Translations under genes and position numbers: made by a program
The notes under the pieces: model-generated
The model's input: only the letters and a program-made list of their open reading frames with translations
Told to the model about the DNA's origin: nothing
Databases searched by the model: none
Origin: a virus
Lineage: Duplodnaviria > Heunggongvirae > Uroviricota > Caudoviricetes
DNA length: 6,265 nucleotides
IMG/VR virus record: IMGVR_UViG_2737471834_000004
Direction: 5' to 3' (one strand)
Shown here: piece after piece, positions 1 through 6,265 of the stretch
Numbering within the stretch: the stretch's first letter is position 1
Layout of the letters: each line of letters begins with the position of its first letter

Positions 1-82
1 GTAAGTTGGCAGCATCACCCATGCGCAATATATAGAACAGCGAAGAAATATGATGCAATTTTATAGTGATTTCATTTTAAAC

Positions 83-109
83 CTTCCCCTCTCTGAGTGA
101 GAAGGGAAG
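83..109 (-). terminator. Possible weak intrinsic terminator downstream of the 890-aa ORF
   Basis: Inverted repeat cttccc(c)tctc / gaga(a)gggaag at 83-109, 9 nt beyond the TAA stop. On the minus-strand RNA it is followed by UUUAAAAUGAAAU, an A/U-rich but short U-tract. Confidence 0.3.
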
Positions 110-117
110 TAGAGCGA

Positions 118-2790
118 TTACTGAATACCGTATTTCTTCTCGCGGACAGAAAACGCAATATGTCCGCCTTCAAGGATAGAGCAAATATGATGTCTTATAC
201 CTTGTTGCATTCTTATATTACCATCTTCTATTGCTCCCACTTCATAACTGATAACATCACCATCATAATTAGCAACAATTACTTGTTCTGAATCAGAGTT
301 AATAACCAGATTTGCATTGTGTGTAACAATGATTACTTGTCGATATTTTTTTATTTTTTTGAACAAAGGAACCAATTGCTTCATAATAAAACTATTATCA
401 AGATCATCCTCTGGCTGATCAAATACAAATGGGCTACCAAAAGGATCTGTTGCAAGTTTCAAGCTTACATAAAAAGTCCCACGCTGGCCAACTGATAGTT
501 GGTCAACAGTCTTACCTTTATAGGTAAATTCCGCATTAACATATAAATAATTCTTTATCTTTTCTGGAGAAAACAAATAATGCATTAATTCATATCGTCC
601 TCCTTGATTAAAGTACTCACTTTTCCAGAAAAAATCCTCTATTGTAATTAATTCACCATCTCCATCCGTGCTAATTACTTTATCATTGTTTAACAGCTTA
701 ACAAAATCAGTATATGATTGTACATTAAATGTATCCGTTAACTTTTGTCGTGTTGATTTTTCATTTGATGCTCTAAATTTCCCGCGATTAATACAACCTT
801 CTAATCCTGCATAGAACTTATCATTATCAAAGATAATTGACCCACGAATATTTATGTCGGATAAAATATCTCTAACAATCTGGTTTTGCTCTTTGTTCCA
901 ACTATCATTTTCAATATGAAGAGAATCGTATAAAGATTGTATTTCTGTAACTTGCTCTTCTATATATTTACTATATTTCACTGCAAAATCACTGCGCTCT
1001 CTTACATAAGCAAAGTATCGTTTTTTATTTTCCTCTATTTCTTTTATTTTAGCCTTCGCTTTATCTATGTTTTCTTGATATTCACTTAACTTACTTAACA
1101 ACGATGACACATCCTGATTAATACCTTGATCAAGGAAAGATTTTTTAATTTCTTCATTTTTTAACCTCACAGCCTCTATATCATCATTAATCACACGAGC
1201 ATTTTTTTCTAAAATCTCATAGTAAACAGAAGCATCTGTCAAAGGTAATTCAGGCACAATAACAGATAATTCATTGTAACTTTTAATACGTTCGTTAATT
1301 TCAGAAAAACCTCTTCGAATAAAAGCAATCAACTCTTGATTTCTACTCAATGCCAACTGGAGTTTGTTAATTGACTCAGAATTTTTCTGATATTCAACAA
1401 TGAGTTCTTTATTTTTAGGATTAGTTAATGTTTCAGTTAGCTTTTGATTTTCTTCAATAATTTTTGTCTGGAATGCATCAGTATTAATTCTATTTCCATA
1501 ATTATCTGATTGCGTCCAATAATCTACGAACGTTCTATATTTCGAAAGATTATCTAGCAATAAACTCATATTTGCAGAGTCATATTGTTTTTCTCTAATC
1601 CCAAGCATTCTTTTAATTTCACTGCTTAGGCTTTCTGGATTTTTTGCAAAATTAACAATGTCACCTTGTGAAACATGGAGATAACTATATGGTGATGAAT
1701 TCTCCGAGTTAAACAAAATAGAGGATTCTTCACCATAACCTTTATCTAAGAATACACTTACACCTTTAGCGACCACGTTTCTTTCCGATGTTAAAAAGGA
1801 ATCTGGCATTAATACTTTTTTCATTGCATCAAGGAATATACTTTTCCCAGTGCCTCTACCACCAATTATTGAAACCATATTCCTATTTAATGGTATTGTC
1901 TGTTCTTTAAAGGAAAGATTATTTCCCTCGAAAATATTACCTGATAAATTTATCTGACTAAAATACGGTTTAACGTATGATAAATCAATAAAATCATCTG
2001 ATTGTTGAACCCTTTCCGCTGGCTCAAATAGAGTTTGTCGTAACCCTTGGAATGACGGCTTTGCTTTTACCCAAGTATATTTACTACCAATCTGATTAAA
2101 ATCATGTGCATCAGAGCATACAAAAACTGGTTTTCTAGGAGCATCTTCATATCGTGTATCTGATAAAAAGAAATCACGATCTCTGGGCCGCCCCAATACA
2201 ATATCCCCTAATTTATCGATTTCTTTTGCAACAGCGACCGAACGCCCCTCTTTCTTCTCTGGGTGAAATCCACCATATCCATTAGGACAAATCGCTATAA
2301 AGAAATCCCTGCCAATAACAAAGTCATTTTTTAGGCCTTCGCACAATGTTTCATAATTGATAATTGCCTCATTAAAGTTAATACCCGACTCATCCATAGA
2401 ATCTTTACTACACCAAATAGTCTTTCCATCATCTGTGGTGTTTTGAAGTTTTATTCTTGATAACACCTTATTTATTTTTTCTGATGGTATATCTTCAGAA
2501 AAAATTGCATGTATATTTATCCACTCACCAGATTTATTGGGCTGCGCAATTCTAAATTCAATATTTGCCAATATACACACAGCATATTCTTTCTCAGAAA
2601 ATTTCTTGCGTATAGTTTCAAGCTCATCTTTTGCTAAAAACCAATAATTTGTCACAGCAATAAGTTTTAAATTATTTTTAATAACAGCATCAACATATAA
2701 ATCAATATCCTTTGGTTGATAGTTGTTATTGACATGCGTTAATGGTGAATGTATGTGAAGATCCCATTTATTCCAAGTTGAACCAATCAT
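118..2790 (-). CDS. PHP-domain phosphoesterase fused to SMC/Rad50-like ABC ATPase with coiled-coil insert; candidate anti-phage defence protein
   Basis: Uninterrupted 890-codon ORF, ATG at 2790-2788, TAA at 120-118, AGGA about 7 nt upstream of the ATG. Hand-counted motifs: PHP motif I DLHIHS (aa 10-15) and terminal SDAH (aa 226-229); Walker A GGRGTGKS (aa 309-316); K/E/Q/L-rich region aa ~440-650; ABC signature-like LSVGQ (aa 765-769); Walker B-like FVFDQPEDDLD (aa 788-798); H-loop VTHN (aa 822-825). Strongly AT-rich, Asn/Lys/Ile-rich codon usage unlike the flanking P4 core. Confidence 0.85.
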   Translation of the reverse strand: MIGSTWNKWDLHIHSPLTHVNNNYQPKDIDLYVDAVIKNNLKLIAVTNYWFLAKDELETIRKKFSEKEYAVCILANIEFRIAQPNKSGEWINIHAIFSEDIPSEKINKVLSRIKLQNTTDDGKTIWCSKDSMDESGINFNEAIINYETLCEGLKNDFVIGRDFFIAICPNGYGGFHPEKKEGRSVAVAKEIDKLGDIVLGRPRDRDFFLSDTRYEDAPRKPVFVCSDAHDFNQIGSKYTWVKAKPSFQGLRQTLFEPAERVQQSDDFIDLSYVKPYFSQINLSGNIFEGNNLSFKEQTIPLNRNMVSIIGGRGTGKSIFLDAMKKVLMPDSFLTSERNVVAKGVSVFLDKGYGEESSILFNSENSSPYSYLHVSQGDIVNFAKNPESLSSEIKRMLGIREKQYDSANMSLLLDNLSKYRTFVDYWTQSDNYGNRINTDAFQTKIIEENQKLTETLTNPKNKELIVEYQKNSESINKLQLALSRNQELIAFIRRGFSEINERIKSYNELSVIVPELPLTDASVYYEILEKNARVINDDIEAVRLKNEEIKKSFLDQGINQDVSSLLSKLSEYQENIDKAKAKIKEIEENKKRYFAYVRERSDFAVKYSKYIEEQVTEIQSLYDSLHIENDSWNKEQNQIVRDILSDINIRGSIIFDNDKFYAGLEGCINRGKFRASNEKSTRQKLTDTFNVQSYTDFVKLLNNDKVISTDGDGELITIEDFFWKSEYFNQGGRYELMHYLFSPEKIKNYLYVNAEFTYKGKTVDQLSVGQRGTFYVSLKLATDPFGSPFVFDQPEDDLDNSFIMKQLVPLFKKIKKYRQVIIVTHNANLVINSDSEQVIVANYDGDVISYEVGAIEDGNIRMQQGIRHHICSILEGGHIAFSVREKKYGIQ

Positions 2791-2866: not shown

Positions 2867-3023
2867 TAATAATCCACCCTATCGTCACTTTTTAAGCAGT
2901 TATATACTGATGAAACTGAACATTTCCATCTAATAACCCGAAAATTCGTTCATCTCCACATGTATGTAATGACAGGCTCCCCACGTAATGCCCTATAAAG
3001 TCTTTTTGGTAATAATACGCGCG

Positions 3024-3042
3024 GTGCTTTCCCCGCCTCGCC
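3024..3042 (-). other. cos: cos site (19-nt P2/P4-type cohesive end)
   Basis: Plus strand gtgctttccccgcctcgcc is the reverse complement of GGCGAGGCGGGGAAAGCAC, which I recall as the P2/P4 cohesive-end sequence. It lies downstream of psu, as in P4. Confidence 0.75.
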
Positions 3043-3066
3043 CGCCCGCTTTGCAGGGCGGTTTTA
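3042..3066 (+). terminator. GC hairpin plus T-tract abutting cos
   Basis: Stem ccgccc (3042-3047) / gggcgg (3056-3061), 8-nt loop, then TTTT (3062-3065) on the plus strand. Could terminate plus-strand transcription entering the cos/psu region or be a packaging-related structure. Confidence 0.3.
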
Positions 3067-3142
3067 ATGCAGTTGCACAGTCACGCTCAGGCCGTGCCGG
3101 GCGTGGCCTGGTCTGCAGGAAATGAGGCGGGAAAACGCATGC

Positions 3143-3176
3143 AAAGCCATGCACCTTATCGATGCATGGCTTTTTT
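3143..3176. terminator. Bidirectional intrinsic terminator between psu and cos
   Basis: Perfect 8-bp stem gccatgca (3146-3153) / tgcatggc (3163-3170), flanked by AAA upstream and TTTTTT (3171-3176) downstream on the plus strand. On the psu (minus) transcript the hairpin is followed by UUUGCAUGCGUUUU. Sits about 38 nt past the psu stop. Confidence 0.5.
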
Positions 3177-3207
3177 CAGTAAAAACGGGCGGATTTTTCG
3201 GGGAGTT

Positions 3208-3780
3208 TTACACAGACTGACGTGATGCCAGTTCTGCACTTTTACGCGAAAAAATCATGTTCTGCGCAGGGGTGAATTTTTCACGGCTGTCATCCACCGA
3301 AGCCGCGTCAGGCCTGAATCCGATGGTCGTTAAAATGTTGCTATCCTGTGCGGAATAATTAATTTTTTCCCCCTTCGCAAGCCAGGACAGAAGGGCTTCA
3401 CGCAGGGCATCTGTGGCACGCTGTATGGCACAGTTTCGGGCAATGGCCGTCAGCTCACTGTAGCCCATCAGCTCCGGTGCCAGTGCGGCCGCCAGTGCTG
3501 TGCCGTGCTGCTGCATAAAATCATTCAGCCGCTCGCGGATGCTGATGTGCTGAACGGCTTCATGCGAACGAACATAACGACCGGCGGCCTGATTCACCTG
3601 CCATTTTCTGACTTCGATAATATTGCGTAATTCGTCCAGGCGACTGACGTTTCTGCCTTCCCCGGACAGAAGCCGCAGATATTCCTGTTCGGCTGCCGCC
3701 AGTTCATTTTTGCGCTGAAGCCATGCCGCTTTGTTATTCTGGCAGACCTCAAAAGCCTGCTGTAATGACATTGTGGTCAC
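3208..3780 (-). CDS. psu: Psu (polarity suppression protein; Rho antagonist and capsid decoration protein)
   Basis: 190-aa ORF, the size I recall for P4 Psu, in the expected position after delta and before cos. The codon at 3780-3778 is GTG with AGGAGA about 7 nt upstream; an alternative ATG lies at 3771-3769. Identity asserted from memory, not searched. Confidence 0.85.
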   Translation of the reverse strand: MTTMSLQQAFEVCQNNKAAWLQRKNELAAAEQEYLRLLSGEGRNVSRLDELRNIIEVRKWQVNQAAGRYVRSHEAVQHISIRERLNDFMQQHGTALAAALAPELMGYSELTAIARNCAIQRATDALREALLSWLAKGEKINYSAQDSNILTTIGFRPDAASVDDSREKFTPAQNMIFSRKSAELASRQSV

Positions 3781-3794
3781 ACCCCGTCTCCTGA

Positions 3795-4040
3795 TTAATG
3801 GTTGAATGGTGAGCTGTAACAGCCTTTAACTTTTCGGACAACAGCCGGTGCTGTGCTTACCGGTGCTGGTTTTTCCTCCGTGACCGGAGAACGAATCACG
3901 GCACAAATTGACTCATGCGTTTTAAATGTCGCCGAACAGTAAATATTCTGGCACTGCAGATAACTTTCTTTGACATTGTCACTCACATACCGGCTGGTGC
4001 GGGTATGCGCTGAATGACGACAGAAAGGGCAGCGCATCAT
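3795..4040 (-). CDS. delta: Delta/Ogr-family zinc-finger late-gene activator, single-domain form
   Basis: 81 aa with C-x2-C...C-x4-C (CPFC ... CQNIYC) typical of the Ogr/Delta family. ATG at 4040-4038 overlaps the sid stop as ATGA (4037-4040). Located between sid and psu as in P4. Confidence 0.85.
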   Translation of the reverse strand: MMRCPFCRHSAHTRTSRYVSDNVKESYLQCQNIYCSATFKTHESICAVIRSPVTEEKPAPVSTAPAVVRKVKGCYSSPFNH

Positions 4041-4771
4041 GACAGCAGTCCTCTGGCCTTAAGCTCTGCTCCCTGCTGGTCTATTTTGTCCTGCCACACC
4101 TTGCGCTGTGCCGGTGTGCCTGCCACCTCATAATCCATGTGCGGGAGTGTTGCCGCTGACAGCCCGGTCAGCCGGAGAACCGGCTCGCCGCTGAGGCTGA
4201 TTTGTATCTGTTTAATTTTCTGTTCCAGCGATGATTTCACCTGCTGCATGACAGCCTTTTCCGGTGCGACGTAGCCCTGATGGCCGGTGGTGTTGGCGAG
4301 CGGATTTTCCTGTACCAGGATGCTCAGATGCATTGCCCGGACAAGCACCTCACAGGTTTCATTCAGGGCGTGTTCCAGCTCATGCTCTGCATACAGACTC
4401 AGAAGGTGATGATGTGCCTTCCGGTAGGCGGTGGCCGTGCTGTCACACGCCCCTTTCAGGCGTTCACGTTCGAAATTCAGCACCACGGCCAGATTGTCAT
4501 ATTCCTGTACCAGCTCCCGGCGTGCCACGCGCTCAATGTGGCGCTGTTTCAGCTCGTCGCTCAGGACACCACCGGCTGCACGAAAGGCCGTGCGCCAGTC
4601 GTCAGCGTCGTTTCCGTCGGCCTGCGTCAGCGCATTTTTTTCCTGCTCTGCCCGTTCAATGGCCGTGACGGTCTCATCCATCAGGCGGGCGTTCTCAAGA
4701 TGGGCGGCTCTGGACTTTTCCAGTTGTGCCAGTGCGGGTTGCAGATATTCAGGGATAGTGTGGTCAGACAT
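4037..4771 (-). CDS. sid: Sid (capsid size determination, external scaffold)
   Basis: Start placed at the ATG 4771-4769 (MSDHTIPEYLQ...), giving 244 aa, the size I recall for P4 Sid, with GAGGAG 8 nt upstream. The ORF-track start at 4837 is rejected because it lies upstream of the predicted Psid start site. First gene of the sid-delta-psu operon. Confidence 0.85.
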   Translation of the reverse strand: MSDHTIPEYLQPALAQLEKSRAAHLENARLMDETVTAIERAEQEKNALTQADGNDADDWRTAFRAAGGVLSDELKQRHIERVARRELVQEYDNLAVVLNFERERLKGACDSTATAYRKAHHHLLSLYAEHELEHALNETCEVLVRAMHLSILVQENPLANTTGHQGYVAPEKAVMQQVKSSLEQKIKQIQISLSGEPVLRLTGLSAATLPHMDYEVAGTPAQRKVWQDKIDQQGAELKARGLLS

Positions 4772-4861
4772 TTTCCGGCTCCTCGTCACTTCAGGTTGAG
4801 AAAATTGTGACGTACACCGGACAACAACACGACGCATTGCAGATGTGCCAGCCCTGACACA
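4772..4861 (-). promoter_or_regulatory. Psid late promoter with Delta/Ogr box
   Basis: TGT-N12-ACA dyad (tgtgccagccctgacaca) at 4844-4861. Placing its centre near -55, as for P2/P4 late promoters, puts the start site near 4797, downstream of the ATG at 4837 and upstream of the sid ATG at 4771. Confidence 0.55.
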
Positions 4862-4915
4862 GGAGACTCATCCTCAGACCGGCAAGCCAGGAAAAGGTCG
4901 CAGGAAAAACCGGCT

Positions 4916-5090
4916 TACTGTTTGTTTTTTTATATTTTACTGTTCACCTCTGTTCACCATAAGAAAAAAGATAAGTAATACAGTAAGTTAAAGGGTGAAC
5001 AATCGCAGTAATGACTGTTCACCGTCTGTTCACCACTGTTCACCCGTTGATGGGCTTTTTGTGCTGTTTATTACTGTTTGTTTTTATTAA
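4916..5090. repeat. crr-like iteron cluster (alpha-protein binding type I repeats, TGTTCACC)
   Basis: Direct copies of cTGTTCACC at 4940-4948, 4950-4958, 5015-5023, 5026-5034, 5036-5044 (10-11 bp phasing) and an inverted copy GGTGAACA at 4994-5001. Flanked by two copies of tactgtttgttttt(t)at at 4916-4933 and 5072-5087. TGTTCACC is the octamer I recall for P4 ori/crr. Confidence 0.65.
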
Positions 5091-5148
5091 TTCGTCGGGA
5101 ATGAATAAGAAAAAACGATTTGTATTTCACTATAAAAATTACGAATTG

Positions 5149-5178
5149 CTTTAAGTGGCTTTAAATGACTTTAAGTGG
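5149..5178 (+). promoter_or_regulatory. Three tandem 10-bp repeats upstream of PLL; candidate operator
   Basis: ctttaagtgg (5149-5158), ctttaaatga (5159-5168), ctttaagtgg (5169-5178), exactly contiguous and in helical phase, about 30 bp upstream of the PLL Delta box. Confidence 0.4.
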
Positions 5179-5203
5179 AGATGAACAAAAAACACACAAG
5201 CAT

Positions 5204-5275
5204 TGTAAGGCTGCCGGAACAAATCCCCCCTGTTGCGTCTGCTGAAAATATTCACAAAATAAAACGCTACCCGAA
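5204..5275 (+). promoter_or_regulatory. PLL (Delta-activated late-left promoter) with Delta/Ogr box
   Basis: TGT-N12-ACA (tgtaaggctgccggaaca) at 5204-5221. Predicted start site near 5268, about 55 nt upstream of the vis ATG and about 395 nt upstream of the candidate PLE start site, matching the ~400 nt PLL-PLE spacing reported for P4. Confidence 0.5.
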
Positions 5276-5323
5276 GCCGGACGGACTTATCCGGTGCTGT
5301 ATGGACATTAACGAGGTAGCCCG

Positions 5324-5590
5324 ATGCAAGCTGTTTTTTCTTCCCCGTCTCCTGCCCCTGTGACGCCACTGATGCCGCTGCCGGACATCACACAGGAGCG
5401 TTTTTTACGTCTGCCGGAAGTGATGCACCTGTGCGGCCTGTCACGCTCGACCATCTATGAACTCATCCGTAAGGGGGAATTTCCGCCGCAGGTGAGTCTT
5501 GGCGGTAAAAATGTGGCCTGGCTGCACTCTGAAGTCACCGCATGGATGGCCGGCCGCATTGCCGGACGCAAACGGGGGTATGACGCATGA
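5324..5590 (+). CDS. vis: Vis / AlpA-family helix-turn-helix regulator
   Basis: 88 aa with AlpA-like HTH core ([29 protein letters not shown] ... [12 protein letters not shown]). GAGG 7 nt upstream of the ATG at 5324. First ORF downstream of the PLL candidate, as for P4 vis; stop TGA overlaps the next ORF start as ATGA (5587-5590). Confidence 0.75.
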
Positions 5591-6177
5591 TGATGCCCGC
5601 TCTGCAAAAACTCCCTTTTTCTGGCTTGCCTTTTTCCGGCATTTGCGGATATAGTTTTTCCGTTGCCGCAAAATCGGCAGCCGGGCGTGAGAACCCGTGT
5701 AACTCGAAGGCGACATATGACGCGCCATGCGTCTTTTTTTGTGTCGCAATCAACGCCACAGAGCGCCAGATTATGGTGTGGCGTGTGGTTTGCCGTGCAG
5801 GTATGATCCTGTTCGCAATCGCATGTTATGCCACTGAGTCAATGGTAGCTCAGGCGGGGCAGCCTCCGGGCTGGCCGGTATTCTTCGAGGCCGGTATTCT
5901 CACCCCCGTCTGGGCTATCGCCATCGAGCGTGAGAACTCCGGCGATAGCAGTTATTTGCTACTCGAAGGAGGCTGCCTTATGGCTACAACCCTTACCCCC
6001 TCACACCCTGAATTTGTCTTTGTGTTTGCGGCTGTCCGTCGCGCAGACCGTCATCCCCGTATCTGCATGCTTCGCACCGTCGCCGGTGATGAACGCAGCG
6101 CCCGCCGTTCCCTTGTCCGTGACTATGTGCTCTCCCTTGCTGCCCGTCTGCCGGTGGTGGAGGTGTCCCGTGCGTAA
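5587..6177 (+). CDS. eta: Eta-like ORF (long nested ORF of the left operon)
   Basis: 196-codon ORF beginning with three consecutive ATGs (MMM) and overlapping the vis stop. P4 eta is described as 197-199 aa with three possible starts, beginning upstream of PLE and containing kil in frame. The amino-acid composition is unusual, so protein-level function is uncertain. Confidence 0.5.
5626..5655 (+). promoter_or_regulatory. Candidate PLE (constitutive early-left promoter) inside eta
   Basis: -35 TTGCCT (5626-5631), 18-nt spacer, -10 TATAGT (5650-5655). Located inside eta and upstream of kil, consistent with P4. Confidence 0.45.
5980..6177 (+). CDS. kil: Kil-like small protein (65 aa), nested in-frame in eta
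   Basis: ATG at 5980 preceded by AAGGAGG (5966-5972) with 7-nt spacing. The 65-aa product matches the reported size of P4 Kil. Ends with a double stop TAATAA (6175-6180). Confidence 0.6.
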
Positions 6178-6265
6178 TAAAAAAGCCCCTCAGACCGTCT
6201 CAGCACGTCATGACGCCCGTGAACACCTCAGCATTGAGGCTTACCATGCGTATTTTCATGAAAGG

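Follow-up and report, generated by a model that had tools for sequence, protein, structure and literature searches.

A probable cos site of the P2/P4 type between psu and the variable cargo slot of a P4-like satellite of Escherichia coli

Introduction

In the P4/P2 system, the terminase of the helper phage recognises the cos site on the satellite DNA, introduces nicks at a distance of 19 nt on the two strands and packages a genome length. The DNA is housed in a P2-derived capsid that is made small by the satellite protein Sid and is decorated by Psu. P4 is packaged by the terminase of P2 and P2-like phages (Rousset 2022, PMC9122126; PMC3931495). In P2-related phages, the cohesive end is a 5'-extruding sequence of 19 nt, GGCGAGGCGGGGAAAGCAC (PMC3931495), and a conserved cos region of 55 bp is needed for packaging (cited in PMC3931495). 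The defence hotspot of P4 directly adjoins cos (Rousset et al. 2022, PMC9122126).

The window considered here is the whole stretch of 6,265 bp that was analysed, belonging to the virus record IMGVR_UViG_2737471834_000004 of IMG/VR (Caudoviricetes). Its positions 3018-3077, with likely accessory sequence extending to ~3170, very probably form the cos site of an intact P4-like satellite of E. coli.

A 19-nt cohesive end between psu and a cargo gene

The original prediction had recognised the cos sequence of P2 and P4 at positions 3024-3042, which is correct. Indeed, the minus strand reads GGCGAGGCGGGGAAAGCAC there with 0 mismatches, which corresponds to bases 1-19 of the P4 record NC_001609 and to the published end of the P2 family. 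The alignment to the P4 and P2 cos regions, which had been proposed as a check, thus returns the 19-nt cohesive end exactly. The sequence is matched only once in the window, even when up to 3 mismatches are allowed, and in none of 200 dinucleotide shuffles of the window. The expectation for an exact 19-mer by chance is 4.6e-8 over 6,265 bp and both strands. The site had also been placed between psu and a cargo gene, which is where it stands, flanked by the psu stop codon (3208-3210) and by the cargo ATG (2790). The features concerned are the following:

3024-3042, minus strand: cohesive end, cleavage part of cos (exact match; P4 bases 1-19; published P2-family end)
3208-3780, minus strand: psu, 190 aa, for polarity suppression and capsid decoration (Pfam Psu, E = 1e-87)
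118-2790, minus strand: cargo gene, TrlF-family AAA-like ATPase, 890 aa (NCBIfam NF045780, 571.7 bits vs a cutoff of 350)

The 19-mer at 3024-3042 is a well-known feature of cos, and both its sequence and its position next to psu are already published.

The satellite element and its relatives

Besides psu, which shares 95% DNA identity with the psu gene of P4, the window includes other genes and RNAs typed by protein and RNA models or by comparison with P4 and with annotated relatives:

3795-4040, minus strand: delta, Ogr/Delta zinc-finger activator of late genes, 81 aa (Pfam Ogr_Delta, E = 1.4e-18)
4037-4837, minus strand: sid, capsid size-determining scaffold (region ~96% identical to that of P4 at the DNA level)
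5324-5590, plus strand: alpA/vis-like regulator, counterpart of P4 ORF88 (Pfam Phage_AlpA, E = 7e-21)
5649-5925, plus strand: P4 immunity region (three Rfam matches above the gathering thresholds)
1-100, plus strand: int, satellite integrase, 3' end only, convergent to the cargo gene (position taken from the annotated locus L003)

The identity of delta is in agreement with the annotation of the relatives, where the gene is named likewise. The sid reading frame is listed with 266 aa in the window vs 244 aa as annotated in the relatives and in P4, and the annotation of NZ_OZ547176 names the product 'capsid size-determining scaffold Sid'. The Rfam matches of the immunity region are C4 (CI RNA) at 5838-5925, the a1/b1 targets at 5649-5701 and isrK at 5662-5739. 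The position of int was transferred from L003 (98.3% identical to the window), in which the gene occupies 7901-9082 and base 9001 corresponds to window base 19. Overall, window positions 3043-6247 share ~96% DNA identity with P4, and the window contains psu, delta, sid, alpA and the CI RNA at full length.

Two peculiarities of these genes can be mentioned. The delta protein of the window is an 81-aa single-domain form, whereas it counts 166 aa in P4 and in O157:H7 Z1815 (501 nt), and both forms are present among E. coli satellites that are otherwise very similar. The CI-RNA immunity region is located inside an ORF listed as encoding an Ash/Icd-like protein (5587-6177).

At least 95% of the window is found in 11 E. 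coli genomes, at 97.5-98.4% identity. The element of ECO8855 (98.3% identical) displays, in this order, tRNA-Sec, int, the TrlF-family ATPase gene, cos, psu, delta, sid and alpA. After alpA come an icd-like gene, two small ORFs, a DUF5375 gene and the alpha primase-helicase gene. The ORFs of the epsilon region are included, and the element carries the 120-bp crr repeats of the P4 type. It is located at tRNA-Sec and is delimited by 39-nt att repeats lying 11,467 bp apart, the P4 genome being 11,624 bp long. Its gene set, its att repeats and its P4-like size thus designate it as a complete P4-like satellite of packageable size. As the window covers about half of such an element, completeness is read from these near-identical relatives.

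A conserved core that stops sharply before the cargo

The P4 record was closed end to end, and the resulting circularised junction was aligned to the reverse complement of the window. The alignment is uninterrupted over 426 columns, of which 406 are identical (95%). It starts inside psu, passes through the right end and the 19-mer, and ends at P4 base 25, that is, at window position 3018. Homology to P2 and to P2-like phages and prophages is confined to window positions 3018-3077, with 87-93% identity. Two features result from these comparisons:

3018-3077, no strand assigned: cos core of ~60 bp, common to P4-like satellites and P2-like phages (P2-like homology; conserved columns)
3018-3023, no strand assigned: flank on the left-end side with GCGCG, last conserved bases before the cargo (homology ends at P4 base 25)

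On the minus strand, the core at 3018-3077 is composed of GTGCAACTGCATTAAAACCGCCCTGCAAAGCGGGCG, then the 19-mer, then CGCGCG. When positions are numbered relative to base 1 of the cohesive end, the conserved columns of 35 cos sites extend from about -36 to +25. Over this 62-bp core, the window differs from the P4 cos at two positions, -13 and +25, and the T found at -13 is common among other natural cos sites. The larger region from -130 to +25 (156 bp) counts 13 substitutions between the window and P4; 12 substitutions lie between -87 and -13, several of them within the palindrome at -67 to -49. The base immediately following the 19-mer is a C in the window and in P4, vs a T in all 33 other natural sites; the flank is thus not invariant, and this deviation is harmless for P4.

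The same boundary is observed within E. coli, where 2,232 of 5,426 complete genomes match window positions 2900-3210. In a sample of 60 rows spaced evenly over the ranking of these 2,232 matches, the match starts at query base 119 (window 3018) in 55 rows and at query base 1, 114, 118 or 120 in the other five. About half of the sampled rows reach psu and are P4-like, and about half include the core of ~60 bp only and are P2-like. When cargo-bearing loci are aligned, divergence is total upstream of GCGCG(C) and identity is nearly complete beyond it. The comparisons with P4, with P2 and within E. coli therefore agree on a breakpoint at 3018, six bases past the cohesive end.

This breakpoint at +25/+26 is very sharp in essentially all elements, a feature that goes beyond the literature covered. 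From such an abrupt stop, the 60-bp core could serve as a recombination anchor by which satellites exchange defence cargo with one another and with helpers.

The cargo gene and the defence hotspot of P4

The TrlF-family ATPase gene is the sole gene between int and cos. The encoded protein displays an N-terminal HxH motif (WDLHIHSP) and an ABC/SMC-like C-terminus. The cargo of a 98.3%-identical element, WP_023352766, is referred to as a single-gene 'AAA_29' system in Table S1A of Rousset et al. 2022 (PMC9122126). In the literature and tables searched, no record was found of an anti-phage assay of the TrlF-family cargo. Assignment to the Ppl defence family was considered and rejected, as the Ppl model gives 109 bits vs a cutoff of 1000 and the protein belongs to the separate TrlF family of NCBIfam. 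Its hits to the Ppl models of PADLOC and NCBIfam are weak, and its relationship to the validated defence protein Ppl is no more than distant.

Counted from the predicted left end (base 3042, minus strand), the cargo gene extends from its ATG at nt 253 to its stop codon at nt 2,925. The gop gene of P4 starts at nt 247 from the left end, so that the cargo gene, which had been predicted to lie at the extreme end of the packaged linear genome, occupies that place by homology. The genes inserted between int and cos vary from one element to another:

P4: gop-beta-cII
EC-107: ATP-dependent nuclease and UvrD helicase (Gabija-like)
Ec55: HamA and DEAD/DEAH helicase (Hachiman-like)
O157:H7 Z1815: DEAD/DEAH helicase and a hypothetical gene
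This window: TrlF-family ATPase

Despite these unrelated cassettes, homology resumes at 3018 in all compared elements. Judged from the sequence, the slot between int and cos is the defence hotspot that Rousset et al. 2022 described for P4.

Natural cos sites across genomes

The exact 19-mer was searched for in GTDB with one genome per species, representing 596 Gb. Among the 38 loci retrieved, 33 display cos flanks and 5 are devoid of flanking similarity, vs 4.3 chance hits expected in 596 Gb. The five context-free loci (L010, L011, L027, L030 and L040) belong to GC-rich, non-enterobacterial genomes, namely of Phycisphaerales, Fretibacterium, Sphingomonas, Chloroflexales and Verrucomicrobiia. 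With 5 chance hits out of 38, the 19-mer alone is thus no proof of a cos site at database scale. The context common to the 33 other loci reads ATGCAnCTGCATTAAAACCGnCC...AAGCGGGC(A/G), followed by the 19-mer and TGCGCGC.

The record titles of the 33 genuine loci mostly designate isolates and MAGs of Enterobacterales. Genuine cos contexts are also found under the labels Bacillota, Clostridiales, Lachnospiraceae MAG or Vagococcus sp. (L009, L015, L025, L032 and L034), and these contigs may represent enterobacterial contamination or mis-binning.

The genuine loci were sorted into P4-like and P2-like by tblastn of the upstream 800 bp and by similarity of the flanking sequence. About 19 of the 33 are P4-like, including 11 with psu, 5 with delta without psu and 3 assigned by flanking sequence only; the 14 loci with neither psu nor delta were taken as P2-like. 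In the five delta loci (L007, L012, L019, L031 and L036), which come from three Kosakonia assemblies and two contigs of the soil MAG CTSoil_132, the gene adjoining cos is an Ogr/Delta-like gene and not psu. This suggests P4-like satellites without psu at the position adjacent to cos.

The 19-mer is identical in the 33 loci by construction, as they were fetched with the exact sequence. In E. coli EC-107 (L042, ~5007-5025), the cohesive end carries one substitution, GTGCTCTCC vs GTGCTTTCC, in a P4-like element which, starting at base 3018, shares 99.3% identity with the window. The cohesive end is thus not strictly invariant in nature.

Hairpins, palindrome and TGCA repeats

Two hairpins had been predicted between psu and cos. 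Both are real, at 3042-3061, with a T-run to ~3065, and at 3143-3176, the first one being weak. A third palindrome, absent from that prediction, stands between them. The elements of this region are the following, none being assigned to a strand:

3042-3061: inverted repeat CCGCCC...GGGCGG touching the cohesive end (fold z = -1.9)
3068-3077: proximal TGCA pair, TGCAACTGCA on the minus strand (near-invariant columns, P2-like and P4-like)
3088-3110: palindrome CAGGCC-N11-GGCCTG (fold; counterpart CCGCGCC...GGCGCGG in P4 and many cos regions)
3139-3176: distal TGCAT cluster and strong hairpin (z = -4.8 and -5.3; motif in P2-like loci)

The hairpin at 3042-3061 forms 6-8 pairs with a folding energy of -8.5 kcal/mol and a z-score of -1.9. 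Among 35 natural cos sites, the full stem is found in the E. coli P4 clade only. The stem pair -18/-1 is mismatched in 26 of the 35 sites and the pair -16/-3 in 14-15 of them, and no compensatory change was found at either pair in this set. A conserved structure or a terminator was consequently rejected, the mismatched pairs being uncompensated and the z-score reaching only -1.9. A stem that is mostly broken without compensation points to conserved sequence within the cos core rather than to conserved structure, and positions 3042-3061 are most simply read as a protein-recognition element.

The hairpin at 3143-3176 is stronger, with 11-13 pairs, -11.5 to -12.8 kcal/mol and a z-score of about -5 (-4.8 and -5.3). 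It lies 32 nt downstream of the psu stop codon and is accompanied by a six-T run on the plus strand and by a weaker T-rich tail on the psu strand. By these T runs, it resembles a bidirectional terminator. However, P2-like loci devoid of psu likewise conserve the underlying motif GGTGCATGnnTTTGCATGCG (-125 to -95). A role as psu terminator only was therefore rejected as insufficient, since these TGCAT motifs are conserved where psu is missing. Thus, besides resembling a terminator after psu, 3143-3176 probably belongs to the extended cos region.

The palindrome at 3088-3110 has a folding energy of -8 kcal/mol and a z-score of -1.4. It is shifted and substituted relative to the CCGCGCC...GGCGCGG palindrome of P4. 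Most P4-like loci, and several P2-like ones, conserve the GGCGCGG arm of that palindrome.

The cos region of 156 bp contains 7 TGCA motifs vs 0.54 expected, a number reached by none of 5000 shuffles, and 5 of the 7 stand in columns conserved across P2-like and P4-like cos regions. Of the TGCA(T) repeats, three fall between about -124 and -98 and two between -35 and -26, corresponding to window positions 3139-3167 and 3068-3077. From this conservation, we infer that they are candidate protein-binding repeats belonging to an extended cos site, where they might form a cosB-like subsite. Together with the cos core as a recombination anchor for the exchange of cargo, this makes two tentative readings which, taken jointly, are possible but on balance unlikely.

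No description of the TGCA(T) repeats of cos was found in the literature covered, to which Ziermann & Calendar 1990 does not belong, and a literature search on binding by the P2 terminase found no directly relevant work. The conserved TGCAT repeats go beyond the literature covered, as does a cos-adjacent hairpin devoid of structural conservation.

Packaging and alternative explanations

The identity of the site, its conserved context, the satellite genes and the position of the cargo are observed in the DNA, and cleavage, the polarity of the overhang and packaging by a helper are carried over from P4/P2 biology. Along these lines, a P2-like helper would provide the terminase and the capsids, and circular or replicated satellite DNA would be recognised at cos. 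The nicks would be placed 19 nt apart, at 3042/3043 on the minus strand and at 3023/3024 on the plus strand if their position is that of P4, and being staggered they would leave 5' overhangs of 19 nt. A genome of ~11.5 kb would then enter the small capsid remodelled by Sid. The linear genome would start on its left side at window base 3042 (minus strand) with GGCGAGGCGGGGAAAGCAC-CGCGCG, the cargo gene following from nt 253. The right end would be base 3043, 165 nt past the psu stop codon, psu being the last gene. Nothing in the sequence argues against the function of the site.

The site might also be an intact-looking relic, carried by a cryptic and immobile satellite that is never packaged and kept in sequence by recent descent only. 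Many P4-like islands in E. coli are generally thought to be defective, only half of the element is visible in the window, and the cos region differs from that of P4 by substitutions between -87 and -37. However, all satellite genes of the window are full length, and the near-identical element of ECO8855 is complete in its genes, retains both att sites and is close to P4 in size. Moreover, ~2,230 genomes of E. coli, and several further genera of enterobacteria, retain the core beside totally divergent cargo, and such a sharp conservation argues for purifying selection on cos. A relic is thus improbable.

The cos of a P2-like helper prophage, instead of a satellite, is a still poorer candidate. 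The 19-mer and the 60-bp core are indeed identical or near-identical in P2-like phages, but psu, delta and sid stand on one side of the site, the cargo and the integrase genes on the other, and no portal, terminase or replication gene A is found nearby. In addition, identity to P4 extends over 3.2 kb from cos vs 60 bp for P2. Gene content rules this origin out, leaving it with hardly any probability.

Finally, a chance GC-rich sequence without packaging role, like the 5 context-free matches among the 38 exact ones in GTDB, is dismissed by the expectation of 4.6e-8 in 6.3 kb, by the lack of any match in the shuffles and by flanks homologous to P4 and P2 on both sides. The cos site of an intact P4-like satellite is the reading retained.

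Significance

The cos site at 3024-3042 anchors the annotation of the element as a P4-like satellite and defines the predicted ends of its packaged genome. At base 3018, the conserved packaging signal gives way to the variable slot for defence cargo. These coordinates may help to delimit the cargo, here the TrlF-family ATPase gene, and to design experiments of mobilisation or transduction. No new biology is involved, as the cos sequence, its position adjacent to psu and the defence hotspot adjacent to cos are all published.

Comparison with known systems

The closest counterpart is the cos of P4 (NC_001609 / X51522, junction 11624/1), with which the 19-nt end and the next five bases (CGCGC) are identical. 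In P4 as in the window, cos is located between psu and the non-essential or cargo region, which is constituted of gop-beta-cII in P4, whereas the element of the window carries one TrlF-family ATPase gene. The element also differs from P4 in its integration site, which is tRNA-Sec in the relatives of the window.

With P2 and P2-like phages (Peduoviridae), the 19-nt end is identical and the core of ~60 bp is shared. TGCAT repeats are present ~95-125 bp to the right-end side of the P2-like cos, as in the window, whereas neither the rest of the flanking sequence nor the neighbouring genes are related. P2-like sites display a T after the 19-mer and mostly an A before it, where the window has a C and a G, respectively.

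The P4 hotspot described by Rousset 2022, with variable cargo next to cos and bounded by int, is organised as in the window, and nothing structural differs. The cos of lambda (cosN/cosB/cosQ) is comparable through the staggered nicks made by terminase, the 5' cohesive ends and the accessory sequence on one side; its overhang, however, is 12 nt long vs 19 nt here, its terminase belongs to another family and the two sites have no sequence relationship.
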